From: an uncultured Chromatiales bacterium
Lineage (GTDB): Bacteria; Bacteroidota; Ignavibacteria; SZUA-365
Length of the DNA: 64,000 nt
Reading direction: 5' to 3'
Assembly: GCA_964371045.1 (NCBI GenBank)
Contig: CAYJMN010000003.1
Location: 1,459-65,458, forward strand
The position numbers were made by a program, and so were the translations under genes. The notes below the pieces were generated by a model. The model was not told the origin of the DNA. It searched no databases and saw only the letters and a list, made by a program, of their open reading frames with translations. This document shows, in pieces, positions 12,202 through 27,608 of the stretch. Every line of letters begins with the position of its first letter. Within the stretch, counting starts at the first letter, position 1.

Positions 12202-12766
12202 GACAATATCCTGTACATGTACATAATAATGTACGACTGTAATCGGGAAACTCCAACGAGCGTCTTCGAACCGTTGGTGACCCCGGAGGCAACATCGTGA
12301 AACCGTACAAAAGAAGTTGCGGCTGTGAATTCCGGGCAATACGCAGCGAGGGAATTCATTCGACTGAAGTGCAGCCCACGAAGTCCCTCTTTTCGAGCCA
12401 TGCGGCCGACCGCTTTCGCGCTGAAGGAATTGCCTCCCGCCGGGGAGGACCGGATTGTCGAGCTGGTGAAAAAAGGGATGGGCTGAGGTCCGCACGAACG
12501 CTCAATCCACCATCCCCCCACCGCACTTCCTGTGGCTAGCCGACGATTACATCGGTGTGCATCGGTCCGAGCCACGACGGGACATCCCCGCCTGCTTCGG
12601 ATCCGCTAATCCTGTTCTTCATGTCCGGAATTGCATTCCAACTCCGTTCAACATATTTTTACGACTAACCTGTGTTTTTCGTCGTACCCGCTCACATGAA
12701 CCATTAATGACGCACCGAGCCGACGATGGATATCATTCACGTTCGGGGCAAAGGAGTGGAGGAATC

Positions 12767-14917
12767 ATGATCATTCGAATGGGTTTCTGTTGCATTTCGA
12801 TTCTCTTTCTATTTTTCCAGAAAACACCGTGCGAAGCCCAATCCGGCTGGTACTGGCAGAATCCGCTACCGCAGGGAAACATCCTCACCGCTGTTTCCTT
12901 CACCGGAGCGAACACCGGGACGGCGGTAGGCGTTGCCGGCACGATTCTGCGCACCACGAACGGCGGAACGAAGTGGACAATACAAAACTCCGGAACGACA
13001 AACAGTCTGGTTGACGTGTTCTTCACGGATGCGAACACGGGTACCGCAGTCGGCGGAGATGGTACGATCCTCCGCACCACGGATGGCGGAACGCATTGGG
13101 GGAATCTAACCACCGGGACAACGGACGCGCTTTCCGGGGTGTTCTTCACGGATGCGTACACAGGGACCGTTGTCGGCGGCAACGGTACCATCCTCCGCAC
13201 AACCGATGGCGGAGCGACCTGGACTGAACAGCCCTCGGGTTTAATCCTCGCAACTGTGCTCAACTGCGTCTTCTTCACGGACGCTACGACAGGAACGACG
13301 GTCGGAACCGGTGGCACGATCCTCCGGACAACCAACGGAGGGACAACTTGGACAAGCCAGATAAGCGGTACGCAATACGACCTCAGCAGTGTATCCTTCA
13401 CCGATGCGACAACGGGATTCGCAGTCGGAGCGAAAGGGACGATCCTGCGGACAACCAATGGCGGAGCGGATTGGACGATTCAATCCAGCGGGACACTCAC
13501 TGCTCTGGGAGCAATCTGCTTTAGCGATGCCGCTACTGGAACCATCGTTGGATCCGCGGGAACCGTCCTCCGAACGACCGATGGCGGAACGACGTGGACG
13601 AAGCAGTCCAGCGGAACGATGGAGGCACTTCTTGGAGTTTCCTTCGCCGATGCAGCGACCGGATTTTCTGTCGGCACCAACGGTACTATCCTTCGCACGA
13701 CCGATGGCGGAGCCCGTTGGGACGCTCAATCACACATCGTGTCATTGGAATCACTCAATGACGTCACTTTCACCGATACAAATACCGGAACAGCGGTCGG
13801 CGACAACGGCACGATTCTCCGGACGACCGATGCCGGAGCGAATTGGACGGTGCAAGCGAGCGGAACGACTGCGCAGCTCAACGGGGTATCCTTCACCGAC
13901 GCGAACACGGGCCATGCGGTAGGCGGACTCATTTCCGTGGGGAGTCCGGAGGTAATCCTGCGCACCACCGACGGCGGCGCATTGTGGAGCATCACAAACA
14001 TTTCGTTACCGACGGCCACAACCATGTTATCGGATGTTGCTTTCGCCGATGCAAGCAGCGGAATCGTTGTCGGCTTAATAGATTACAGCGGAATGATCCT
14101 GACTACGTCCGACGGTGGGGCGAGTTGGACGAGGCAGGCAATCGGGAGGGTGCCTCCGCTCTACGGCGTGCACTTTACCGACGTCAACACAGGCACCGTG
14201 GTGGGAGAACAAGGCACGATCCTTCACACCAGCGATCGCGGCGCGCATTGGTCACCACAGGCAAGCGGCACAGGAGGAAGAAACCTGTTTGGCATCTGCT
14301 TCGTCGATACCAGCATCGGCATGATCGTAGGCGATGGTGGCACGATACTGCGAACGACCGATGGAGGGTCGGTCTGGAACAGCCAGTCCTCCGGAACCCA
14401 ACGGACACTTTTAGATGTCAGTTTCACCGATGCAAATACAGGAACGGTGGTCGGCGAAGCCGCCACGATCCTCCACACTACCGATGGCGGTGCGAGTTGG
14501 ATCGATCAGTCGCCGCGTGCATGGTATAATTTTTCGGGAGTTACCTTCACCGATGCTACTACAGGAACCGCCGTCGGGATGCACGGAATAATTTTCCGCA
14601 CCACCACCGGCGGCGTGACCTGGGTCGAGGAGCCGAAACCCTCCCCTACCCTCTTCCATCTCGCACAGAACTACCCGAATCCGGTCACCACGAGCACCAA
14701 CATACCCTTCTCCGTCACGAAGCGAGAACACGTGACGCTCGGCGTGTACAACATGCTTGGACGCCGGATAACTGTGCTGGTGGACGAGGAGCGTGAGATG
14801 GGATCGCATGCAGTCCCCTTCGATGCCACGGGGCTTGCTTCAGGGATGTACTTCTATGTGCTCAGGACCGGGAGTGTGGTTGAGACGAAGAAGATGCTTG
14901 TGGTAGGCCCTGAATAA
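12767..14917 (+). CDS. BNR/Ycf48-like repeat protein with T9SS C-terminal sorting domain
   Basis: ATG at 12767 after aaaggagtggagg. Signal peptide MIIRMGFCCISILFLFFQ. About 14 repeats of GTILRTTDGGxTW. C-terminus NYPNPV...GMYFYVLRTGSVVETKKMLVV is a Por/T9SS CTD. Confidence 0.85.
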   Translation: MIIRMGFCCISILFLFFQKTPCEAQSGWYWQNPLPQGNILTAVSFTGANTGTAVGVAGTILRTTNGGTKWTIQNSGTTNSLVDVFFTDANTGTAVGGDGTILRTTDGGTHWGNLTTGTTDALSGVFFTDAYTGTVVGGNGTILRTTDGGATWTEQPSGLILATVLNCVFFTDATTGTTVGTGGTILRTTNGGTTWTSQISGTQYDLSSVSFTDATTGFAVGAKGTILRTTNGGADWTIQSSGTLTALGAICFSDAATGTIVGSAGTVLRTTDGGTTWTKQSSGTMEALLGVSFADAATGFSVGTNGTILRTTDGGARWDAQSHIVSLESLNDVTFTDTNTGTAVGDNGTILRTTDAGANWTVQASGTTAQLNGVSFTDANTGHAVGGLISVGSPEVILRTTDGGALWSITNISLPTATTMLSDVAFADASSGIVVGLIDYSGMILTTSDGGASWTRQAIGRVPPLYGVHFTDVNTGTVVGEQGTILHTSDRGAHWSPQASGTGGRNLFGICFVDTSIGMIVGDGGTILRTTDGGSVWNSQSSGTQRTLLDVSFTDANTGTVVGEAATILHTTDGGASWIDQSPRAWYNFSGVTFTDATTGTAVGMHGIIFRTTTGGVTWVEEPKPSPTLFHLAQNYPNPVTTSTNIPFSVTKREHVTLGVYNMLGRRITVLVDEEREMGSHAVPFDATGLASGMYFYVLRTGSVVETKKMLVVGPE

Positions 14918-14961
14918 CGGTATTCGCCGATGCTCCAAGGCGCTGGAGGAACTGAAAGAAA

Positions 14962-15004
14962 CAGGCCAGCACCCGATTTTGGCAATCAGGTGCTGGCTTG
15001 TTAA
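14962..15004 (+). terminator. rho-independent terminator-like hairpin
   Basis: gccagcacc ... ggtgctggc stem followed by a T-rich stretch, 45 nt after the stop of the BNR gene. Confidence 0.5.
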
Positions 15005-15157
15005 CAAATCGCGATGTTAGGGATCTGGCGAATTCAGCAAAGATTAACTGGTTTTAGCCTCACTTGTGAAAAAATCCCGGCTCAACGTACACATCCGCTT
15101 TTTCGAGTTCGCCAGGCTTCACGATACCCTTTTCATACAGACTCTCTTGCAGATAAC

Positions 15158-15694
15158 TCAGTCGGATTCTGTGTCGAATCCCTCCAGACGCTCAAGAGCC
15201 TCTCGAGGCGTATCCATGAATAGATAAAGATGGTTTAGGTCATCAGCTAAACTGATGAACCCGTGTTTAAGATAAAACTCTCTGGCCAGATCGTTTTTTG
15301 CATGCGCCTCAATGGCGCGGGCCACAATCTGTTCCGACAATGAAATAGCTCTTTCAATTGCGTCCCACAACAACTCACTCCCATAGCCCTTTTCTCGATG
15401 AGAATTTGATACCGCTAATCGACCTATTCGAACCGCTGGAATTGGATGCCGGGGAAGTCCCTTAACCAACTCTTTCTGAAGGTGGATCGTGTTGATCTCC
15501 GCCATAGCGATCGCATAATAACCCAATATCTCCGATTCATCCTCTTTATGGAGCACGTATGTGACGCTCATCCCCAGCGTCATGTGCTTCCTTGCTCTCT
15601 TGTGTAGAAAGTCATTGAGCTCGGGGACGTCACAATCGAAGCCTTTACGATCAAAGTCTGGGGAGAGCTGTGAAATGCAGCGATCAGAGGCCAT
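15158..15694 (-). CDS. GNAT-family acetyltransferase toxin (TacT-like)
   Basis: 178 aa with an acetyl-CoA-binding-like core (RLAVSNSHREKGYGSELLWDAIERA). Overlaps and sits downstream of a DUF1778 antitoxin gene. Confidence 0.75.
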   Translation of the reverse strand: MASDRCISQLSPDFDRKGFDCDVPELNDFLHKRARKHMTLGMSVTYVLHKEDESEILGYYAIAMAEINTIHLQKELVKGLPRHPIPAVRIGRLAVSNSHREKGYGSELLWDAIERAISLSEQIVARAIEAHAKNDLAREFYLKHGFISLADDLNHLYLFMDTPREALERLEGFDTESD

Positions 15695-16007
15695 GGGATG
15701 ATTTAATCTTCTGTCTGTGGCGCCTGGCAGCTTTTAACAATGCCTTGTTCGGCTTTGCGGGATTTTCCAGCATACGCATAAATATTTCAGAATCGGCTAA
15801 TGAAAGCTCAGTAGCCCGATTCTCGCGTAATACACTCTGGGCGACTTTCAGGCTATTCGACAAAACGAAGCTCATAAGGCTTTGCCCCGTGACTGTAGCA
15901 GCCGCCTCGAGCAGAGTTTTTTGTTTCGCGTCAAGACGAAGATCAATTCTACGGTCTTTTGCTGGTTTCTCGTGTTTATCGTCGATTTGAAGGGCTAGTT
16001 CTTCCAT
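15684..16007 (-). CDS. DUF1778 antitoxin (TacA-like)
   Basis: ATG at 16007. MEELALQIDDKHEKPAKDRRIDLRLDAKQKTLLEAAATVTGQSLMSFVLSNSLKVAQSVLRE is typical DUF1778. Confidence 0.8.
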   Translation of the reverse strand: MEELALQIDDKHEKPAKDRRIDLRLDAKQKTLLEAAATVTGQSLMSFVLSNSLKVAQSVLRENRATELSLADSEIFMRMLENPAKPNKALLKAARRHRQKIKSSHGL

Positions 16008-16093
16008 TTCTATGCTCCTATGCGAAATAATCAGATCAACATGCCGCATTGACTACTGAGTGCAGCAACAGATTGTTTTATCGTCCAATCTAT

Positions 16094-16190
16094 ACGGAGC
16101 AATTCCGTAAACTGACAAGAATAAGGACAGGATACGGAAAATATCCGTAATGATTCAGTCTAACGTCAAGAGTACGGCATATTTCCGTAT
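16094..16190. promoter_or_regulatory. three TACGG-N7-CCGTA palindromes at exact 40-bp spacing
   Basis: tacggagcaattccgta (16094-16110), tacggaaaatatccgta (16134-16150) and tacggcatatttccgta (16174-16190). They lie 87-180 bp upstream of the tacA-like start. Confidence 0.5.
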
Positions 16191-16436
16191 AAGTCAAGAG
16201 TCTTTTCTCCCCCCATTTTTTCCGAGCTGAGGCGTGAGTTCCTGAGATGGGCGGAGTGCGGGGAAGCCTTCTCTTGTTTACAATGCAGCTTTCAAGTCAC
16301 CAGCGATCAAGCAGGAACAGATGATTTTGATGCCCGCTTGATGCTCACTTATTGCCAATGTGGATGCCTTATAACTCCTTTCGCCCCTGCCTCTCATCTT
16401 CGTCGATGGGAGTTTGTCCACCAATATATTCGAGTT

Positions 16437-16865
16437 CTAATCCCACAGGTACCTCGGCATCGTACGGACGAGTTCGTCCGCCTTCGAACGAACCGCTCTT
16501 TCGATCCGCTCAGACGAAACCCCCTGCTCCTCAAGTTCCATCGACTTCGATGTTCGGAGGACAATCGTGAGTGCGACCTGTCTCGCTCTCTTCTCGATCA
16601 TCGTATCAAGAGATGCTTCCCTTGGAATGAGGACGTGGACGAGATCCAGATCAAGAGCATTCGCGGCCTGCCGAAGTGATCTCAACGTGATCGATCCGTC
16701 CGCTTCCCGCTCCTCCATCTCCATCACGCTCTGGGGCGATATCTCCAGCCTGGCCCCAAGTTGACGGAGCGACATCCCGAAGGCAGTCCGAAAGGCATTG
16801 AGCCAGCCTCGTTCCGGAACTGCGGATATCAGATCGGAATGTCTATATTGAGCGTAAATGTTCAT
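16437..16865 (-). CDS. mobile mystery protein A (HTH, TIGR02612-like)
   Basis: ATG at 16865. ...GWLNAFRTAFGMSLRQLGARLEISPQSVMEMEEREADGSITLRSLRQAANALDLDLVHVLIPREASLDTMIEKRARQ. No partner mystery protein B (Fic) gene is adjacent. Confidence 0.7.
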   Translation of the reverse strand: MNIYAQYRHSDLISAVPERGWLNAFRTAFGMSLRQLGARLEISPQSVMEMEEREADGSITLRSLRQAANALDLDLVHVLIPREASLDTMIEKRARQVALTIVLRTSKSMELEEQGVSSERIERAVRSKADELVRTMPRYLWD

Positions 16866-17338
16866 GTTACAGCGGACAATCTGATGAGTATTCCCCTGTT
16901 TCTTGTTGAGGTAATGCAAGCTGTATGGCGTGAAGAGACTACTCCTTGACCCCAGGGACATTCGTTTATCCTCGATCAAGCCTTGCATCGTCAGCAAATT
17001 CCAATTATGTTTGCAACAAGCTGGTTTCAAGCCATATTTGACCCATAATTGGACTGAGTTGGCGGAGCTGGGTGCGTTGAAGAAAACGCACGGTCACAGG
17101 TCGATCAATGCAGCCGCTGATGAATTATCAGGAAACGTCAGGTCACGGAAGTTCAATGACCACGGGAATGCCATGATGTCACAGAAACAAGCATGCGGAG
17201 AATTCAATCCCCATCCGATGATCTCTGAAGTCGGCCAGCGTAATCTCCGTCATGTTTGAGAGTGAGGCCGCAATGATTTTACTGGTTCGTCCAATGATAC
17301 AAATCTCAAACCTGTCCCACAAGAATCACTGAAGTGCC

Positions 17339-17401
17339 TTCAGTTCTCCGAATGAACATTTGTGCTGAAAAGCCCGCCCATCGCAAATCTGCAAAACGTT
17401 A
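17339..17401. repeat. 63-bp direct repeat, left copy
   Basis: ttcagttctccgaatgaacatttgtgctgaaaagcccgcccatcgcaaatctgcaaaacgtta. 60/63 identical to 18875-18937. Confidence 0.85.
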
Positions 17402-17424
17402 GCGCCAACCTAAAAATCAATAAC

Positions 17425-18750
17425 ATGAAAAAGCAAATATTACGGATGATCAAAATCACCGCGTTTGTATTTTTCCCCGTATTTTTTTCCCCGTCACTTG
17501 TAGTTTCGCAGACTGCAGATTCTTTTTTCGTAGCTGGCATTCATCCCACAGCATCTCTTCAATCCACAACAACCGGAAAACAAATAATGACCTTATTTTC
17601 ATGGAAAGGAAGACTCTATTCCGGATACGGAGATTATGGCGCAAATACCGGGCCCATAAATATTTATTCTTTTTCGCCGGATTCGTCCACCTTTACATAC
17701 GAAGCACAGGCAAATACCGAAGCAATCTATAATTATCGTGCCATTAACGGAATGTTATATGCTCCTTCTATCGACCGCAAATCATATGCAATTCCTGGGG
17801 ATTATATAAAGGAGGATAGCAACGGACTTTGGACTAATTATAATTTTCTCAGTAATTCAACGCATGTATATGATGCTGCAAGGCTCAATGATACCGTATT
17901 ATTCATGGTAGGCTCGCAGTCTGATAGAGCAGTAGTATGGAAAAGCAGCAATAATGGCCTAACCTGGAAAGTAATTTTAACTGTTTCTGCGATCAGTGGA
18001 AAAACTGGCGACTTTGCAAGATTTTATTTCGCAGGCATGTATAATGGTAATTTATATGTGCAGGCAAGGGATTATTACGGATCACTTCATCTCAACTCAG
18101 AAGTATATAACGGTGTTAACTGGACCAATGGACCTTCGCTATTTCCGTCATCTAATTTGCAGGGTTGGAAACCGGAAGTATTTGCCGGAAAGCTTGTTTA
18201 TAGAAGCTGGGAACCTGGATTGTCTTCTCAACTCATAACTTTTGATGGTACAAATAATATATCTGCAGGATTATATGTACTTGACTGTTTTATTCATTCC
18301 AATTATTATTATGCACTTGTAGATTCGGGTTTTGGCGTAATAAATCTAAGACGAACAACAGACCTTATCAGATGGGAAAATATATTAGCTGTGCCAGCGA
18401 AGAGCCGCAGTCTTGCTATTCTGAATGACAAACTATTTATCGGTACTACTGATTCAAAAATTTTACAATTCACCAAATCCGTTTCTTTATTAACTACTTC
18501 TGTCCCAATTCTGAAACCAGATGAATTCCAGCTAACTTTTTATCCCAATCCGGTAACTGATTTTATTCAGTTGGCCTTTTTTGAATCCCATGATATTTTT
18601 GAAGTTGATATAATAAACATACATGGTGAAATAGTTCTTAAAATAAGAAACGAAAACAAGGTCAATGTTTCAGAATTATCAAGCGGGATGTATTTTCTTA
18701 AAATAAAACAGGGGAATAATTTCATTATGCAAAAATTCATTAAACAATAA
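17425..18750 (+). CDS. secreted propeller-like protein with T9SS C-terminal sorting domain, low-GC origin
   Basis: ATG at 17425 with a signal peptide. BNR-like SSNNGLTWKV. C-terminal FYPNPVTDFIQL...SSGMYFLKIKQGNNFIMQKFIKQ. GC about 33% versus about 60% in the flanks. Confidence 0.8.
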   Translation: MKKQILRMIKITAFVFFPVFFSPSLVVSQTADSFFVAGIHPTASLQSTTTGKQIMTLFSWKGRLYSGYGDYGANTGPINIYSFSPDSSTFTYEAQANTEAIYNYRAINGMLYAPSIDRKSYAIPGDYIKEDSNGLWTNYNFLSNSTHVYDAARLNDTVLFMVGSQSDRAVVWKSSNNGLTWKVILTVSAISGKTGDFARFYFAGMYNGNLYVQARDYYGSLHLNSEVYNGVNWTNGPSLFPSSNLQGWKPEVFAGKLVYRSWEPGLSSQLITFDGTNNISAGLYVLDCFIHSNYYYALVDSGFGVINLRRTTDLIRWENILAVPAKSRSLAILNDKLFIGTTDSKILQFTKSVSLLTTSVPILKPDEFQLTFYPNPVTDFIQLAFFESHDIFEVDIINIHGEIVLKIRNENKVNVSELSSGMYFLKIKQGNNFIMQKFIKQ

Positions 18751-18874
18751 TTGATGCAAAAATAATCTGTGACACAGGCGATATAACATCTCGGGAAGAA
18801 CGGGCTGGCTATAACAGCACATTTGCAATAGGCGGGGTTTCGTTCTCCGCAGACAGTTTTATGGTTAGAGAAAG

Positions 18875-18937
18875 TTCAGTTCTCCGAATGAACATTTATG
18901 CTAAAAAGCCCGCCCATCGCAAATCTGCAAGACGTTA
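18875..18937. repeat. 63-bp direct repeat, right copy
   Basis: Matches 17339-17401 with 3 mismatches. Confidence 0.85.
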
Positions 18938-19009
18938 TGGGTAATCCCCACGGTTCAGGTCAATATGTCCGGTTGCTCTCTCATAAAACGGGGCACTGGA
19001 GTGTAGACC

Positions 19010-19306
19010 ATGAAACAACCAAACCCACGGCGTGAAGAGATTCTGCAGCGTTTGAATCAGCCTGGCGCTCCATCTGTCGGAGTGATATCCGAGGAAACCG
19101 GTACTCCAAAAGCTACATTGTACTATTGGTTGTCACGTCGCGATAATGGCGGCAACCGCTCAATGTCAAGACAGGAAGGAAATCCCGGCATGCGCAAGCG
19201 TAGCAAACCCCGTTCCCCGTCTACAAAACTTCGCCTCGTTTCCGAGAGCATGGAACTCGAAGGGGATGCACTTCGCAGCTGGGCCCACGACGGCATCAAA
19301 GCCTGA
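19010..19306 (+). CDS. transposase-like HTH protein fragment (IS3-OrfA-like?)
   Basis: 98 aa. ATLYYWLSRRDNGG and RLVSESMELEGDALRSW resemble IS-family OrfA HTH/leucine-zipper N-termini. Overlaps a convergent ORF, so the call is weak. Confidence 0.3.
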   Translation: MKQPNPRREEILQRLNQPGAPSVGVISEETGTPKATLYYWLSRRDNGGNRSMSRQEGNPGMRKRSKPRSPSTKLRLVSESMELEGDALRSWAHDGIKA

Positions 19307-19801
19307 TGCTTCGATCTCCACGTCCTCATCCTCTATCGGTTCGTCACCAACTTCTTTGCAATAATCTTCTTCAGAGTGTGTCTCGGTTGTTACAACATCA
19401 ACAGGTATATCCGACCACATCCGCATCACGAGCCACAACCCAGCTTGTTCGACCTGTACGAGAAATTTAGCAAGACTGTTGATGACTGCGAGGTTGAGCT
19501 TTCTGAACTCCTCACTGTCCACGCCGCCTAGTTCCATGCACCGAGTGCCATATATGCAGACCATCGAGCGGAACTGCTCGATCATTTTGGCGTGAGTCGG
19601 CGAGATGGGCTGGTGTGTGGCGACATGGATAGTATCGGCGATGACGAGGTAGTTTAGCGTATCAACGCCGGTGGAGAGTTGGAAGAACGTATGCTCCACA
19701 TTTTCATTCAACTGGTTCATGGGTTCTGCTCCTGTCTCTGGTATCATAATACCTATTTGAGATTCATCCGCTTGTACAAACTCTCCAATGCAAGTCCGCA
19801 T
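19166..19801 (-). CDS. hypothetical protein
   Basis: 211-aa ORF in a lower-GC (about 48%) segment. Confidence 0.3.
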   Translation of the reverse strand: MRTCIGEFVQADESQIGIMIPETGAEPMNQLNENVEHTFFQLSTGVDTLNYLVIADTIHVATHQPISPTHAKMIEQFRSMVCIYGTRCMELGGVDSEEFRKLNLAVINSLAKFLVQVEQAGLWLVMRMWSDIPVDVVTTETHSEEDYCKEVGDEPIEDEDVEIEASGFDAVVGPAAKCIPFEFHALGNEAKFCRRGTGFATLAHAGISFLS

Positions 19802-20019
19802 CCACGAACCAATAATTCCACCATCTGCGACAGCAGAGAACGAAAGAATGAGGAAACTGCTCTAGAACGTATCCTATTTCTCGTCGCATCTAAATGAACC
19901 ATGGAGACGATATATTCGGGGTTACACAAATATACAATAATTTAATGACTTTTCCTAAACCGCTGTTGATCTCCTCGGTACAACAGTCCACTGGGATGGA
20001 TACCAATTCGAGGTTCTAC

Positions 20020-20721
20020 TTATGCACTCCCGATGTCGGTGGTCACTGTTACTGCACGTAACTCTGTCTTATGAAGATATGCATCAACTGTTCTTGGCAT
20101 TGTGGACAACATCTTAGAAAGTTCGTCCAAAGATGGCGGACGCTGATTAGTCGAATCCGTCACGTTTTCATGCTTCCTAGAAGAACTGAATCCGCCGAGC
20201 TGTTTCGAAAGGAATTTTCTTTTGAGCAGATCCATCATTCTGTCAAGCATTTTCACTGCGTGTAGGTCTCCTTCGTGCACTGCTCTCTTCCGCTCCGCAT
20301 CCAGATCTCCAATCATTGAATCAAGAGTCTCACGGTCGTCAGGAACATCCTCATTCTCAATGCTCAGCTCAGTGTCCAATGAGAATGTTTCGAGCAGCCT
20401 ACGAGGATCTCTAGGTGCATCATTCAGTTCTTCCTTGAGAACAGAATCTTTAGCCGTAATCTTATGGGGCATGACGATCACTGAGTCGAAACCAGTTCTC
20501 TCCGCAATTGGCGTAGGTGCGTCGCTGAGCTTGGATCCTCCGTGAACCGTCCCGATGTTCGGATAGTCAGCTAAAATCGTTTCCTGAGCCTCTGCGAGCG
20601 TCACCACTACGTTGTTACACTGATGTGGCATCTGTACCTCGGCATCTTCAAGCAGAGTGCTTTCATCGTCAGCGGATAGGCAGCGGTCTGAACCTTTATG
20701 CACGCCGTCGGGGCCATCCAT
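20020..20721 (-). CDS. hypothetical acidic protein
   Basis: 233-aa ORF in a low-GC (about 45%) segment. Confidence 0.4.
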   Translation of the reverse strand: MDGPDGVHKGSDRCLSADDESTLLEDAEVQMPHQCNNVVVTLAEAQETILADYPNIGTVHGGSKLSDAPTPIAERTGFDSVIVMPHKITAKDSVLKEELNDAPRDPRRLLETFSLDTELSIENEDVPDDRETLDSMIGDLDAERKRAVHEGDLHAVKMLDRMMDLLKRKFLSKQLGGFSSSRKHENVTDSTNQRPPSLDELSKMLSTMPRTVDAYLHKTELRAVTVTTDIGSA

Positions 20722-20846
20722 GGCTTCGTATCCAGAATCGGCTGCGAGCCGTACAAGGATTGAAACTGATCCAATAATACTCTTTCTACAAGTTCCGCAT
20801 GCTTCGGAATCGTGAGAATCGAATCATGGACGGTAAAGATCGGTAC

Positions 20847-22082
20847 CTATGGATGATGGTTCATGAGGAACACGCAGGCGTGATCGATCACCATCTTAGA
20901 CTCCATCCTTTGAAGCTTGATCGCCAGTTTGTTGTGTCCATTGATCTTTAGAGTCCGAATCATTTTATACACATGCGGGAACCTTGTCATGAAGATTCTT
21001 TCATTCTCAGATTTCCAGCGGTTCTTGCCGAACAGGATCGGCATGAACTCCGCCTTCGCGGTATCTCGGTCAGTGTTCCAGAGATTGGCAAGGCCTTCGT
21101 AGAAGACACCAGCGTGATTCAGTTCGATGTACAACACAATGTTCTCAGCGACATTCAGCCAGCGTTCTCCGGTACATACATCGGGGCAGAGTCCTTTCTC
21201 CGTGGAGTCCACTGCTGTACAAGTGAGCGGCTCAGACAGAGGAGAACCACAGGTGTCAGTAGACATGTCTTCCGCATGAGGTAATTCACTGGTACATATG
21301 AAGGGTTTTTCTGCGTGTTCATATTCGCTGGTACATATGAAGGCTTCTTCTACGAGAACAATTTCACTGGTACATATGAAGGGTTTCTCTGCGTGTTCAT
21401 CTTCGCTGGTACATATGAAGGGATCTTCATCGTGTTGCAATTCACTGGTACATATGAAGGGATCTTCGTGTTGACGCTGAGCTATCTGAAATTCTGTTCT
21501 TGTGCTTTCATTTTTGCAATTTACTGGTACATATGTGAAGGGTATGACACAGGGGACATCAATCTTTGTGTTCTTAATATCTTTAAGAGATATATTTTCA
21601 TTAGATATAACTTCCTTAATGCTAATCTGTTTCTCTGATCTTTCAATTCTTGTTTTAATACTTCTATCACTAATATCATTGTTGTTTGATAAGAGGAACG
21701 CCTTCTTTGATGTTATAGGGGTTTCAACACCACGTTTGATCACCAAAGAAAGGAAATATGGTTGAGAATTTTTAATGTCAACTGCGACAAGATTCTCACC
21801 TGCGAAGGAAACGAATGACCGCATCACTCTTGCGGTTCGGGTAATGGAGGAATGGAATCTGAATGATGTCGCATCACGTCTGCCACCGTTGTGGTTCGAG
21901 TAGGCAGTCTGAATCAGAATCCAGCAATTCTTTCGATGGACATCCATCCTTTCTGCGGCCTCCTTTGACTTCGCTGTATCCAGAATGAGCCGTTCATCGG
22001 CAAGCCACCTGTTGAGGTACCGAGTGACTTCATCCTGTGGTTTCTCATCATAGATCACTTTTTTCTTAATGAATTTGACCAC
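20847..22082 (-). CDS. hypothetical replicon-like protein with 13-aa tandem repeats (..PFICTSE..)
   Basis: 411-aa ORF (GTG start at 22082 or a later ATG). Contains six perfectly conserved 16-19-bp DNA repeats at 39-bp spacing next to an AT-rich tract. GC about 42%. Confidence 0.5.
   Translation of the reverse strand: MVKFIKKKVIYDEKPQDEVTRYLNRWLADERLILDTAKSKEAAERMDVHRKNCWILIQTAYSNHNGGRRDATSFRFHSSITRTARVMRSFVSFAGENLVAVDIKNSQPYFLSLVIKRGVETPITSKKAFLLSNNNDISDRSIKTRIERSEKQISIKEVISNENISLKDIKNTKIDVPCVIPFTYVPVNCKNESTRTEFQIAQRQHEDPFICTSELQHDEDPFICTSEDEHAEKPFICTSEIVLVEEAFICTSEYEHAEKPFICTSELPHAEDMSTDTCGSPLSEPLTCTAVDSTEKGLCPDVCTGERWLNVAENIVLYIELNHAGVFYEGLANLWNTDRDTAKAEFMPILFGKNRWKSENERIFMTRFPHVYKMIRTLKINGHNKLAIKLQRMESKMVIDHACVFLMNHHP
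21287..21543. repeat. iteron-like array: 6 copies of cactggtacatatgaaggg
   Basis: Cores at 21289, 21328, 21367, 21406 and 21445 with exact 39-bp period, plus a variant at 21524. Spacers are diverged while cores are 100% identical, including synonymous positions. Followed by a roughly 25%-GC tract at 21545-21720. Confidence 0.6.
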
Positions 22083-22109
22083 GATGGGATCGTTCTGGAA
22101 GCGTGGATA

Positions 22110-22240
22110 ATAAAGCCTATTCTCGCATGAAGTCGTCTAAGATAGTGATAATAAAGGAGTTAGCTCAAAATCACCAAAAAAAACAAATCTGCGATTTTGG
22201 CTCATTTTCGCCACTTTTTCACCGATGAAAATACATCTTA
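22110..22240. repeat. 131-bp direct repeat R1, left copy
   Basis: ataaagcctattctcgcatgaagtcgtctaagatagtgataataaaggagttagctcaaaatcaccaaaaaaaacaaatctgcgattttggctcattttcgccactttttcaccgatgaaaatacatctta. About 96% identical to 24172-24302. A 28-bp motif tttaaccac..tttttaaccagttcg also recurs at 22313-22341 and 24123-24162. Confidence 0.85.
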
Positions 22241-22626
22241 CCTCGTCACTTTTAAGCCAAAAATTGGCGTTTTTGATACTGTTTACGCCGTTTTTCAGCC
22301 GACATAAAAAACGATTTAACCACCTTTTTAACCAGTTCGGAGCGTGAAACTGTTCGAGAAGAAGCAAGCATCCGTCAGTTAAATCGGTGAACCCTCTCAG
22401 TATGACAATTCAGGTTCCGAGCGAGGGCGGGCCCGTCCACACTCCGCCATCAGGAGACCAGCCAGGCGGGACTCCATGCCACTACGGAACGCATGGGCGT
22501 GATCGAGATGGATGTTGGGACGGTTTGTTTTTGGGATAAACCGCTCGTATGATTGAATGTTATTCCAAGGTAGATTCTCTTTGATTCTACACATCAAACA
22601 GAGCACCAACATTACGAGACCAATTC

Positions 22627-23922
22627 TTGATACCACAGTTAGTCCGAACGGGATATCTTTTCCTGATGCTGTTTCTCACTTCGCAACTGTGCCGAGCACA
22701 ATCCGAAGCATTCAGTGATCAACGTGAATCACTACGGCACTCGTTTGTTATAAATTCTGGTTGGGCACGGCAACAAAGCGGGACCTCATTCACATGTTTC
22801 GGGATTTCATTCAGAGATAAAACAAATGGTTTTGTCGTATGCCGGGAGGCGTTGATTCTCGGCACAACAGATGGCGGCGATACATGGGTTGATCGATCCA
22901 ACTGGAAGGTACCCAATCGGGAGCTAAAGGCAGTCACCTTTGTAAATTCAAATCGAGCTTTTGCCTGTGGCGGAGGGAGTAGCATTTACAGAACAACCGA
23001 TGGCGGTGCAAATTGGACGAGTCAAGGATTCTGGCCAATGTACGGCTTCACAGCGATCTCATTCTGCGATACTTTACATGGCTGTGCGGTAGGGTGGGGT
23101 GGGACTATTCTTCGCACGACTGATGGGGGAGATCACTGGGTACAACAGACGAGCGGAACGACAGAATGGCTATTGGATGTTGACCTCCAGAGTCCGGAAA
23201 TTTGCACCGTCGTCCTGCAGTACGGTGTTCTCCGCACTACCGACGGTGGCAACACCTGGGTTATGAATCGAGATGTAGGTGGAAACGGTATCTCATTTAC
23301 AGATAATCTCGTCGGAACCATCATTGGAGGGTACGGCATGATTTTCCGGACAACCGACGGGGGAAATACTTGGACGCAACAGGCAAGTGGGACGACCATT
23401 CATCTCCAGGCAGTTTCTTTCTCAGACTCGTCTAATGGAACGGTTGTCGGTCCAGATGGGCTTATACTGAGAACCACAGATGGCGGAGATCACTGGACTA
23501 CGCAATCAAGTGGAACCATTGCATGGCTCTTTGATGTACAGATGATCGATGCGAATACCGTGACAGTAGTCGGGGACACAGGTATCATCCTCCGCACCAC
23601 CACCGGCGGTGTGACCTGGGTCGAGGAGCCGAAAAGTGCCCCTTCCCTTTTCCACCTCGGACAGAACTATCCCAATCCAGTCGCCGCGAGCACCAACATA
23701 CCCTTCTCCATCACGAAGCAAGAGCATGTGACGCTCAGCGTACACGACATACTTGGGAGACAGGTTGCTGTGCTGGTGGACGAGGAGCGTGAGATGGGAT
23801 CGCATGCAGTCCCCTTCGATGCGACTGGGCTTGCTTCGGGGATGTACTTCTATGTGCTTCGAACCGGGAGTGCTATTGAGACGATGAAGATGGTGCTGGT
23901 GAATCCAGCGGCTGGATTCTGA
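22627..23922 (+). CDS. BNR/Ycf48-like repeat protein with T9SS C-terminal sorting domain
   Basis: TTG start at 22627 (tool M). Signal peptide LFLMLFLTSQLCRAQS. Repeats of ILRTTDGGxxW. The last roughly 100 aa are nearly identical to the CTD of 12767-14917. Confidence 0.8.
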   Translation: MIPQLVRTGYLFLMLFLTSQLCRAQSEAFSDQRESLRHSFVINSGWARQQSGTSFTCFGISFRDKTNGFVVCREALILGTTDGGDTWVDRSNWKVPNRELKAVTFVNSNRAFACGGGSSIYRTTDGGANWTSQGFWPMYGFTAISFCDTLHGCAVGWGGTILRTTDGGDHWVQQTSGTTEWLLDVDLQSPEICTVVLQYGVLRTTDGGNTWVMNRDVGGNGISFTDNLVGTIIGGYGMIFRTTDGGNTWTQQASGTTIHLQAVSFSDSSNGTVVGPDGLILRTTDGGDHWTTQSSGTIAWLFDVQMIDANTVTVVGDTGIILRTTTGGVTWVEEPKSAPSLFHLGQNYPNPVAASTNIPFSITKQEHVTLSVHDILGRQVAVLVDEEREMGSHAVPFDATGLASGMYFYVLRTGSAIETMKMVLVNPAAGF

Positions 23923-24171
23923 TCGGACAATTGGGCTGACAGGCAGTCAATCACGTCAGAGTAGTGGAGAACCTCATATTTCCGAAACAATCGCAACATG
24001 TGAGTTGCCTTCTACGCCGCATCCCGTCGGGTTTTGAAATCGTTGTTATTCAGGATAAGTCAGCAATCGGTGAGCGGATAGCGATGGAAATATTCCATAG
24101 GTGTAAATACAAAGCGGGTAAAAATTTAACCACTTTTTACCCGCTTTTTAACCAGTTCGAAATGTCGCTGA

Positions 24172-24302
24172 ATAAAGCCTATTCTCGCATGAAGTCGTCT
24201 AAGATACTGATAATAAAGGAGTTAGCTCAAAATCTCCAAAAAAAGCAAATCTGCGATTTTGGCTCATTTTCGCCACTTTTTCACCTGTGAAAATACATCT
24301 TA
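24172..24302. repeat. 131-bp direct repeat R1, right copy (overlaps the glnA 3' end)
   Basis: Matches 22110-22240. The last 8 codons of glnA (EYKMYFHR*) lie inside this repeat. Confidence 0.85.
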
Positions 24303-25651
24303 TATTCGAACGGGTGCGGCATGGTGGCGATGGCGTGGACTTCCTCGCGTTTGGTCTTGACCCACTGGGCGATGAGGGATTCGGGGAAGACGCCGCCGCG
24401 AAGCAGGAATTCGTGATCGATCTCCAGTGAATCCAGCGCTTCCTCGAGGTTGCGCGGGAGATAGTTCAAGCCAACTTTATCGAACACGTTGGTGTCGATG
24501 GGACCGAAGCCTTCGGTGCGCGGATCGATCTTGTTCACGATGCCGTCGATGCCGGCCATCAGCATGGCGGCGAGCATGAGGTAAGGATTGGCGGTGGCAT
24601 CGGGCGGACGGTACTCGAGACGCGTCTCCATCGGATCGTACACGTAACGCGGTATGCGCACGCAACTCGAACGGTTGGCCTGGCTGAAGGTCAGCGCTAC
24701 GGGAGCTTCGAAGCCGGGGACGAGCCGCTTGTATGAATTCGTCGAAGGATTGGTGAACGCGGCCAGCGCGGCGGCATGCTTGAGCAATCCGCCGATGTAA
24801 TACAATCCGGTTTCGTTGAAATTCGCGTATTCGCCTTCCTTGTAAAAGACATTCTCGCCGTTTTTCGTCAGAAACTGATGGACGTGCAATCCGCTGCCGG
24901 CCTGCTGGTACATCGGCTTCGGCATGAACGTCACTTCCAGCCCCTGCTCGGCTGCCTGACTGAAAAGGATGTACTTCGCGAGCATGATGTTGTCCGCGGT
25001 TTTCAACAGGGGCTCGAACAGAAACTCGATCTCCTGCTGTCCGCGCTCGCCCACTTCGTGATGATGATATTTCACAGGTATGCACGCCTGCTCGAGCAGA
25101 CGGCAGGACTCGTCGCGGTAATCGTCATACAGATCGAAGGGACTGCATGCGTGATACGCGTTCTGGAAAAACTCCTCCTCGTGACTGACCTTGTAATACG
25201 AGGAAGAGGTCCGCGTATCGAATTCGACGCTTGAGAAAATGTAGTACTCGAGTTCCGGTCCCCAGTGCGTGGTGTCGGCGATGCCGAGCGATTGCAGAAG
25301 CTCCTCGGCCTGCCTGGCCACCCAGCGGACATCCTGCGAAAAACGCGAGCGATTCGCGTCCGTGAGATACACGTTGGTGAAACAGGTCATCGTGGGGCGG
25401 TCGCGGAACAGATCGATCTGCGCGGTGGCGAGATCGGGTTTCTGCACCATGTCGCTGCTCTCCACTTTCACGAAGCCGAAACTGGAGCCGTCGAAGCCGA
25501 CACCCTGTTCGAGCAGGCGGTCGAGCGTATTGTCGCGTACCGGAAGGGTGATGTGATGCAGCCTTCCTACAAGGTCGATGGTCTTGAGGTCGATAAATTC
25601 GATGTGGTGATCCCTGATCAACTGCTGGACGCGTTCGAGGTCAGCGGTCAT
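24281..25651 (-). CDS. glnA: glutamine synthetase, type I
   Basis: ATG at 25651. Motifs GFDGSSFGF, KPMYQQAGSGLHVHQ, NSYKRLVPGFEAPVALTFSQANRSSCVRIP and the C-terminal HPFEYKMYF. Confidence 0.9.
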   Translation of the reverse strand: MTADLERVQQLIRDHHIEFIDLKTIDLVGRLHHITLPVRDNTLDRLLEQGVGFDGSSFGFVKVESSDMVQKPDLATAQIDLFRDRPTMTCFTNVYLTDANRSRFSQDVRWVARQAEELLQSLGIADTTHWGPELEYYIFSSVEFDTRTSSSYYKVSHEEEFFQNAYHACSPFDLYDDYRDESCRLLEQACIPVKYHHHEVGERGQQEIEFLFEPLLKTADNIMLAKYILFSQAAEQGLEVTFMPKPMYQQAGSGLHVHQFLTKNGENVFYKEGEYANFNETGLYYIGGLLKHAAALAAFTNPSTNSYKRLVPGFEAPVALTFSQANRSSCVRIPRYVYDPMETRLEYRPPDATANPYLMLAAMLMAGIDGIVNKIDPRTEGFGPIDTNVFDKVGLNYLPRNLEEALDSLEIDHEFLLRGGVFPESLIAQWVKTKREEVHAIATMPHPFEYKMYFHR

Positions 25652-26433: not shown

Positions 26434-27324
26434 ATGGATCCCCGCATGAGTTCAATAAAAATTTCCAACCCCGACGGCGTGACCGAACGCGTCCGACGCC
26501 CGGATTGGCTGAAGGTGAAAGTTCCGCTTGGAACAAAGTTTTCCGAGATTCGCCGCCTCGTTGACGAGCAGAGGCTGAACACCGTATGCGAAGACGCACG
26601 TTGCCCAAACATGGCGGAGTGTTGGAACCGCGGGACGGCGACATTCATGATTCTCGGCGACGTATGCACCCGCTCCTGCGGTTTCTGTTCGGTGAAAACC
26701 GGGCGTCCGCTCGATCTGGATCTGGACGAGCCGCGGCGCGTGGCCGATGCCGTGGTCAGCATGCGCTTGCGCCACACGGTCATCACATCCGTCAACCGCG
26801 ACGAATTGCCCGACGGAGGGGCTGGCATATTCGCGGCGACAATCCGTGCGATACGCGATCGCGTTCCCTCGTGCAGTATCGAAGTGCTGACGCCGGATTT
26901 CCAGGGAATCACCTCCGCGATCCAAACGGTGATTGATGCGCGTCCCGATATTTTCAATCATAACACTGAGACGGTCCCGCGATTGTACCGGCGCGTGCGT
27001 CCGCAGGCGAAGTATCAACGCTCGCTCGACCTGTTGAATATGTGCAAGGAGCAGGGATTGCGGACCAAGACAGGCATCATGCTCGGACTCGGGGAACAGG
27101 AAGATGAACTTGTGCGGGTAATGGAAGATTTACGCGGGATCGGCGTCGACATATTGACGCTGGGCCAATACCTTCAACCGACGAAAGCGCATCTGCCGGT
27201 GGAGCGCTACGTGACGCCGGAAGAATTCGTGAACTGGAAAAGGGTCGGCCTGGAACTTGGTTTCGCCCACGTCGAATCCGGGCCACTGGTGCGTTCGAGC
27301 TACCATGCGGATGAGCAAGCTTGA
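26434..27324 (+). CDS. lipA: lipoyl synthase
   Basis: [41 protein letters not shown] (two Cys clusters), [16 protein letters not shown] and SSYHAD. An alternative ATG is at 26446. Confidence 0.92.
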
Positions 27325-27340
27325 ACGAGTGGCGAGTGAC

Positions 27341-27580
27341 GATTTACGATTGACGATTTACGATTGACGATTTACGATCTACGATTGACGAGTGACGATT
27401 TACGAGTTACGACTTGGATGCTATGGATGGTTGGAGCAGCGAATGGGTGACACAGTAGGCACGACATGCACCATCACCAGACCTCGTCAATCGTAAATCG
27501 CACCAAATCGTACATCGTAAATCGTAAATCGTAGATCGTAGATCGTAAATCGTAAATCGTAGATCGTACACCGTAAATCG
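27341..27580. repeat. inverted arrays of a tacgatt heptamer (long imperfect hairpin or cruciform)
   Basis: Left arm 27341-27410 is (gacgatttacgatt)n. Right arm 27488-27580 is (aatcgtaaatcgta)n, its reverse complement. A roughly 75-nt unique loop lies between them. Confidence 0.8.
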
Positions 27581-27608
27581 AAAAAGGATTCCTCGCGGAA
27601 TCCTTTTT
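27581..27608. terminator. bidirectional rho-independent terminator
   Basis: aaaaaggattcctcgcggaatccttttt: a 7-bp stem with an A-run before and a T-run after. Lies between convergent lipA and secG. Confidence 0.7.

Follow-up and report, generated by a model that had tools for sequence, protein, structure and literature searches.

Organization of the glnA region

The 64-kb stretch of DNA analyzed here (the window) belongs to an Ignavibacteria-like bacterium and encodes on its minus strand glnA, the gene for a type I glutamine synthetase (GS) of 456 amino acids (24281-25651; Pfam Gln-synt_N and Gln-synt_C). A pair of long direct repeats, R1, is found at the 3' end of this gene, with one copy including the end of glnA itself. 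The interval between the two copies contains BNR431 (22627-23922, plus strand), which is convergent on glnA and encodes a BNR-repeat (YCF48-like) protein with a C-terminal sorting domain of the type IX secretion system (T9SS) (Pfam PSII_BNR and Por_Secre_tail; NCBIfam TIGR04183). Past the left R1 copy is a series of further genes, followed by p786 (12557-14917, plus strand; Pfam and NCBIfam matches), a resident BNR/T9SS gene and the ancestral convergent neighbor of glnA. The GC content is 0.31-0.52 from approximately 15000 to 24300, compared with 0.55-0.62 on both sides. The R1 copies are very probably the attachment-site scars of two decayed, integrase-less elements that lie in tandem behind glnA, and comparison with related genomes identifies this gene as the likely attachment site of an undescribed, divergent family of tyrosine integrases in Ignavibacteria-like bacteria.

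The R1 repeats

A repeat search of the window recovers R1 as one family with two copies of 132 nucleotides (nt) each, at 22109-22240 and 24171-24302 (96% identity, 127/132; spacing 2062 nt). Sub-strings of R1 with lengths of 33 and 40 nt occur at only two places in the 64 kb and gave 0 matches in 100 dinucleotide shuffles. Extra copies of R1, or of the core, arm E and cluster M described below, were not found in the window at up to five mismatches. The initial annotation had reported direct repeats of about 96% identity that flank only a BNR/T9SS gene, and this description holds for the 132-nt copies, as BNR431 is the only credible gene between them; the small open reading frames (ORFs) in the same interval have no family match. 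A 28-bp motif noted on each side was likewise recovered as 25 nt at 88% identity (22315-22339 and 24135-24159), with a 16-nt exact core that occurs twice in the window compared with an expectation of 0.02. No inverted repeat brackets the BNR431 unit, and its borders are direct repeats of a gene end.

Each R1 copy consists of 22 nt of the glnA 3' end (the core: KMYFHR, the stop codon and 1 nt) and a 110-nt arm, D. The right copy (24171-24302, minus strand) is made up of core-1 (24281-24302), which forms the last 22 nt of glnA, and arm D (24171-24280). The left copy (22109-22240, minus strand) is made up of core-2 (22219-22240) and arm D' (22109-22218). The part of glnA in the right copy, previously given as the last eight codons, is corrected to the six codons, stop and single nucleotide of core-1. 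The native appearance of the GS C-terminus, on the other hand, was described correctly: the glnA translation ends with HPFEYKMYFHR* like those of its homologues, and the Gln-synt_C match reaches profile position 344/344. Core-1 and core-2 are the same at 20/22 positions, and core-2 preserves KMYFHR* with two synonymous changes (cac>cat and agg>cgg). The 21-nt core of the left copy is an exact match to the glnA ends of four related contigs (L006, L007, L008 and L011).

An integrase family behind glnA in related bacteria

Contig L011 (GS 82% identical to that of the window) carries glnA followed by the core, a homologue of D, a cluster of 13-mers designated M (consensus AAAAGYGGKTAAA) and a tyrosine integrase ORF that runs to the contig end (Pfam Phage_int_SAM_5, 40 bits; Phage_integrase, 28.5 bits). 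A search of 5.8 billion proteins with the L011 integrase returned six relatives only (P0001-P0006), which were traced on eight contigs besides L011. Five of these members, on six contigs from different samples, are encoded directly after glnA with an alignable core-D-M arrangement (P0001-P0004, 73-99% identical to the L011 protein; P0006, 50% identical). In the two contigs that encode P0005, only 315 nt precede the integrase gene, and no glnA end is present. D, M and the integrase gene (int) are linked on seven contigs in all (L011, L084-L087, L089 and L090), with int inside the element beside the junction. These core-D-M-int junctions support the earlier proposal of an integrative element that targets the 3' end of glnA and carries a replacement end. 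In the window itself no integrase homologue was found, either between the repeats, where its absence had already been noted, or anywhere else in the 64 kb.

Members of the family score 40-46 bits against PF13102 (cut-off 22.3). In their alignment, GLRxCD, GKTKRKV, xRHSF and a C-terminal EKNY are invariant and are candidate sites of the catalytic R-K-H-R-(H/W)-Y residues. The top Foldseek matches of an AlphaFold integrase model are all tyrosine recombinases (Brujita Int, lambda Int, Cre, Tn1549 Int and XerA; TM-scores 0.26-0.43, model pLDDT 57), and these fold matches lend weak support to the predicted tyrosine recombinase identity. An integrase profile has no match among PDB sequences. The best match in phage collections is approximately 24% identical and comes from unannotated gut phage contigs, a scan of metagenome contigs with the integrase-alignment profile gave one irrelevant 25% match, and known plasmids and phages gave no DNA match. 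In exact-pattern scans, D and E were absent from viral contigs and the D pattern was absent from JGI metagenome contigs. Because these collection scans gave no useful match, no complete element was recovered.

Element A

The right R1 copy is collinear with the glnA-to-integrase junctions of L011, L084, L085, L089 and L090 (approximately 78-80% identity over D). Collinearity continues through D, M and the int leader ('atatttccatc') to about 20 nt before the int start; the homology ends at about 24070-24075, and the int gene is absent. M and the integrase-leader remnant together occupy 24070-24159 (minus strand), with two direct copies of the 13-mer at 24125-24148, one inverted copy at 24110-24122 and the leader stub at approximately 24070-24109. 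The same layout of two direct copies and one inverted copy is found beside int in L011, L084 and L085, while L089 and L090 show two direct copies. The right R1 copy is likely to be an attL-type junction of one of the two elements, element A. The left copy can be aligned with the intact junctions up to the last position of D' and no further, and both M and int are missing there.

At its glnA-proximal side, core-2 is adjoined by E (22241-22385, minus strand), a 145-nt sequence that contains one 13-mer (22315-22327) as well as the left occurrence of the 28-bp motif (22315-22339) and that is the putative P-type arm of element A. E is 79% identical to positions 13304-13447 of L008, where it closes off a different 2.1-kb insert behind glnA on the distal side and immediately precedes a second glnA core. 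It is also 86% identical to the end of L007, which carries the same AlbA_2/HATPase_c_4/HTH gene as L008; the second core of L007 is not visible because this contig ends inside E. The order E-core-D' at the left copy resembles an attP, or a hybrid attI, layout, and this copy could represent a hybrid junction at which element A (E side) meets element B (D' side). Identity in D and E amounts to 78-86% across lineages in which the third codon positions of glnA agree at only 58-64%, which argues for constraint on the arms or for a recent spread of the elements.

BNR431 is the single gene of element A and lacks close homologues elsewhere (foreign matches are at most 51% identical). Its last 355 nt (23547-23900) form a direct repeat with the 3' end of p786 (14551-14904; 83% identity), including a stretch of about 108 nt at approximately 96% identity and an identical run of 34 amino acids. 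The remainder of the two proteins is approximately 45% identical. This pattern suggests either a gene-conversion patch or a common origin of the T9SS sorting domain.

Element B and the displaced glnA end

Element B is a low-GC remnant at 15076-22108 (minus strand) that encodes no integrase. Starting from the glnA side, it contains three orphan genes on the minus strand, p411 (20847-22082), p233 (20020-20721) and p211 (19166-19801), followed by a T9SS protein gene on the plus strand (17362-18750). The remaining three genes, all on the minus strand, encode mobile mystery protein A (16437-17030; NCBIfam TIGR02612, mob_myst_A), TacA (15684-16049; TacA1 match) and, at the far end of the island, the GNAT acetyltransferase TacT (15158-15694; Acetyltransf match), the last two of which form a toxin-antitoxin pair. 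With its low GC content, its TacAT pair and its mobile mystery protein A, the 9.2 kb between glnA and the p786 side has a foreign character.

p411 occupies the position at which int is found in intact elements and was therefore considered as a possible cryptic recombinase. It has no Pfam, PHROG or NCBIfam match and only five weak homologues, of which one is encoded just upstream of cas1-cas2 (L093 and L094) and another lies in an integrase/HTH_17 module (L095). The gene holds six 39-nt tandem repeats (21268-21535) that encode 13-amino-acid, cysteine-containing units (..PFICTSE..). The T9SS gene of element B has a very low GC content and is bracketed by 63-nt direct repeats (17339-17401 and 18875-18937; 95% identity).

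The original end of glnA can be located beyond element B. A displaced native glnA end (TTTTCACAAGTGA), with native downstream DNA and a terminator, is found at approximately 14955-15075, 9.2 kb away and beside p786. Its first part, core-3 (15060-15075, minus strand; ATTTTTTCACAAGTGA), was read directly from the sequence; it reads ..FFHK* and appears to be a degenerate form of the displaced gene end, recognized only through comparison with the relative L009, in which the site is apparently empty. The glnA of L009 ends with TATTTTCATCGTTGA and then GGCTAAA; the TGA in the window is likewise preceded by TTTTCACAAG and followed by GGCTAAA. The adjoining native DNA (14955-15059, minus strand) matches L009 and includes a bidirectional terminator shared with p786. 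The terminator at 14955-15003 is 86% identical over 49 nt to L009 11427-11474 (E-value: 2.6e-8), the sole match in 1.35 Mb, and begins 55-56 nt past the stop codon in both sequences. Convergent BNR/T9SS genes also follow glnA in L009 and in L013. A weak M-like string, CGAACTCGAAAAAGCGG, is present at 15095-15111. The inserted DNA is 15076-24280, and it therefore comprises about 9.2 kb and two tandem remnants rather than one 2-kb cassette.

Occupancy of the glnA site

An identical GS protein is encoded on 23 contigs, and the nearest species-level genomes are Ignavibacteria/Bacteroidota metagenome-assembled genomes with GS proteins that are 74-86% identical. Comparison within the population covered three of the 23 contigs. 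These three assemblies, from ENA, are base-for-base identical to the window across 14900-25651 (10.7 kb), and no empty-site variant is present among them. As the compared assemblies are identical, they provide no occupancy variants for this population.

Related species do vary in occupancy, and they include empty sites, integrase-bearing elements and short integrase-less inserts (L005-L008). The initial annotation had proposed a comparison of glnA 3' regions in related genomes, and uninterrupted loci are indeed found in L009, L010 and L012, each of which has a single core, unrelated downstream DNA and no D. L009 (GS 86% identical) looks like an empty site: behind the glnA stop codon come GGCTAAA, then, 55 nt on, a hairpin terminator, and finally a convergent BNR/T9SS gene. 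In L006-L008 an AlbA_2/HATPase_c_4/HTH gene is found directly behind glnA (L008 11372-13469; L007 1815-3885; L006 4549-4742). The GS proteins of L007 and L008 are only 82% identical to that of the window. Core-1 of L008 is also followed by a copy of the terminator segment discussed below, by eye a much more diverged one. In L005 (11351-14090), two core copies 2.6 kb apart enclose a p786-like BNR/T9SS gene that is encoded on the glnA strand and whose leader matches that of BNR431 at 76% identity. Each L005 core is followed, after about 155 nt, by the same 32-nt hairpin, and the spacers between core and hairpin are unrelated.

Proposed model

The proposed model for the origin of the R1 repeats is as follows. 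An integrase of the family described above would carry out recombination between the last 22 or so nt of glnA, which form the core, and an identical core carried by the element. On the element, this core would have arm E at one side and arm D, the M cluster and int at the other, with the 13-mers as putative arm-type integrase binding sites. Upon integration, the core copy of the element would replace the last six codons and stop codon of glnA, and because of this replacement the glutamine synthetase would stay intact; glnA in the window is kept whole by such an element-supplied end. Two elements would have been laid down in tandem and then decayed, with deletion of both integrase genes. In the orientation of glnA, the resulting order would be glnA with core-1; element A (D, M, int-leader stub, BNR431 and E); core-2; element B (D', then p411 through TacAT); and the degenerate core-3, followed by the native terminator and p786. 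R1 would then correspond to core plus D at two successive junctions of the tandem elements. Direct repeats of the target gene end are present at the borders of the inserts as core-1 and core-2 and, in degenerate form, as core-3. Element B is probably the older of the two, given its more advanced decay and the near loss of its outer junction, and element A probably integrated at the glnA-proximal junction of B. Since no integrase is encoded in the window, these would be remnants rather than complete members of the family. Element A could leave only if an integrase acted on it in trans, or if RecA recombined the two 132-nt copies.

Several observations weigh against this model. No contig carries a complete integrase-bearing element with both ends, and for this reason the assignment of E as the far arm rests on its shared 13-mer and its position. 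The PF00589 match of the integrases is marginal (28.8 bits for P0001, cut-off 27.1) and is below the cut-off in P0002 and P0006, and the AlphaFold model is of low confidence. Core-3 is short, with 13/16 nt glnA-like, and no alignment with E is obtained for the DNA before it; the far junction of element B would therefore be degenerate or of a different variant. A terminator segment of about 90 nt follows core-1 in L006 and L007 but core-2 in L008, which a simple model does not explain. As its 3' third is common to the resident paralogue p786, BNR431 may be partly local, having recombined with p786 or been partly derived from it. Finally, all of the sequences are metagenome assemblies, although the three independent assemblies agree across the region.

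Alternative explanations

An active cassette system, in which the BNR431 unit and the 63-nt-repeat unit are currently mobile, are shuttled by an integrase encoded elsewhere and exchange T9SS cargo, is rather unlikely. Element A does keep both of its cores and both of its arms, and single-gene units between glnA cores occur elsewhere, namely the AlbA_2 gene in L008 and the BNR/T9SS gene in L005 with its BNR431-like leader. However, occupancy does not differ among the three assemblies of the population. A recombinase of the kind that the initial annotation suggested searching for does exist as the family at glnA in relatives, but none is encoded in the window or among ENA-derived proteins, and 0/6 of the family members come from ENA samples holding this genome. 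In addition, the int-leader stub beside M points to deletion from a larger element rather than to a purpose-built cassette, BNR431 is without a close copy elsewhere, and the 63-nt repeats have no sequence in common with R1, E or M. The earlier suggestion that T9SS genes move here as repeat-flanked single-gene cassettes has no direct support, and the link that it drew to the 63-bp-repeat cassette is not borne out, as those repeats differ in sequence from R1 and belong to the interior of remnant B, the older one.

It is also unlikely that the 3' end of glnA is a cassette-collecting site, at which integrase-less single-gene units of approximately 2-2.6 kb would be exchanged in trans by the integrase of full-length elements. 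Candidate units, bounded by the glnA core, would be the BNR/T9SS genes of the window and L005 and the AlbA_2/HATPase regulator of L006-L008; arm E is seen on such units only in the window, L007 and L008. If this idea were true, it would amount to an integron-like function built from lambda-type att sites that shuffles secreted T9SS cargo and defense-like genes.

A single 2-kb insertion is very improbable. The left R1 copy would here be the displaced native glnA end with native DNA, the right copy would have been brought by a BNR cassette, and everything to the left of 22109 would be chromosome. Such an event is the simplest view of two direct repeats around one gene, and the left copy preserves KMYFHR*. 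It is already contradicted by the distribution of D, which is present only where an integrase or element is present and is absent after glnA at empty sites, by the native downstream DNA and terminator at 14955-15059 beside a third glnA-like stop context, and by the low GC content and element-type genes of 15076-22108. The left copy is therefore not the displaced native end that the initial annotation implied, and the 110-nt D of both copies is element arm DNA.

Equally improbable is a non-mobile origin of R1 as a duplicated 3' untranslated region, small RNA or terminator module of glnA, or by local duplication or gene conversion: the 3' repeat of p786 and BNR431 shows that local homologous exchange occurs, and terminator-like hairpins recur after both cores in L005 and L008, but Rfam at E-values up to 1 gave only two noise hits elsewhere, no tRNA was found, a consensus terminator scan found nothing in D, the R1 boundary coincides exactly with the start of glnA homology and the end of the integrase-side arm, and D, M and int are linked on seven contigs.

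Other features of the window

Two 14-nt tandem-repeat arrays in inverted orientation (27311-27422 and 27476-27597; arms of up to 78 nt, 85% complementary) are located between the genes for lipoyl synthase and secG. Four very long consecutive ORFs of 1602, 1650, 1610 and 1976 amino acids occupy the minus strand at 36289-62397.

Significance and comparison with known systems

The tandem-remnant model explains a 9.2-kb low-GC stretch as foreign DNA and locates the point at which the chromosome proper resumes, in a host lineage of Ignavibacteria-like bacteria that is known almost only from metagenomes. Its value is in annotation and natural history and not in a new mechanism. The candidate att cores and the putative arm-type 13-mers could provide a site-specific integration tool for Ignavibacteria-like bacteria.

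A cis-mobilizable element (CIME) is an att-flanked remnant that is left after loss of integration and transfer genes and that is mobilizable in cis after accretion with a functional integrative and conjugative element (ICE) or integrative and mobilizable element (IME) (PMC5704250). Element A retains attL and attR, with core-1/D/M on one side and E/core-2 on the other, and its genes for integration and transfer are gone, as BNR431 is the sole gene and only the int-leader stub remains. The CIME-like remnant envisaged in the initial annotation fits this definition, with both junctions kept and the integrase absent. No functional ICE or IME partner for element A is present in the window, and element B has decayed as well. 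An evolutionary route that combines CIME formation by decay with tandem accretion at a target gene's 3' end has been described (PMC5704250). It is exemplified by the ICESt1/ICESt3-type elements of Streptococcus thermophilus, for which that review summarizes CIMEs and tandem accretion at the fda 3' end (Pavlovic 2004; Bellanger 2011; both via PMC5704250). As far as that summary goes, the elements of both systems target a housekeeping protein gene at its 3' end and bring a substitute for that end, in both the loss of integration genes leaves an att-flanked remnant, and a tandem array with a hybrid att site inside it arises from successive site-specific integrations. Set against the same summary, the elements described here differ in that the host is an Ignavibacteria-like member of the Bacteroidota and not of the Firmicutes, the target is glnA, and the integrase is an unrelated, highly divergent one that has no match among PDB sequences. 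Furthermore, no conjugation or mobilization genes are seen here, both elements are decayed, and any mobility is putative.

The islands in tRNA and tmRNA genes that Islander maps are recognized by a displaced gene fragment (PMC4383910). As in those islands, the target gene is split and restored by the island, and a displaced fragment marks the far end, a role taken here by core-2 and core-3 (PMC4383910). The present locus differs from those islands in having a protein-coding target gene and an outermost fragment that is reduced by decay to about 13 nt; its repeated block, at 132 nt, also greatly exceeds the core in length, since the same arm is contributed by each of two related elements.

The gathering of promoter-less or single-gene units side by side at one recombination site is reminiscent of integron cassettes. 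Unlike in integrons, the array has no IntI-type integrase beside it and lacks attC hairpin sites; its junctions consist of a directly repeated gene end with long arms, and the units resemble deletion products of larger elements. The tyrosine integrases of Bacteroides NBU1/CTnDOT-type elements have an N-terminal extension and a SAM_5-type core-binding domain, as does the family described here. In those elements, too, int is directly beside one att junction and is accompanied by short direct arm repeats that resemble arm-type sites. The target and the arm motifs differ, and the family described here reaches only about 24% identity in its best phage-collection matches. Integration at gene 3' ends, decay to CIMEs and tandem accretion are already established phenomena, to which this locus adds glnA as an undescribed target and an undescribed integrase family.

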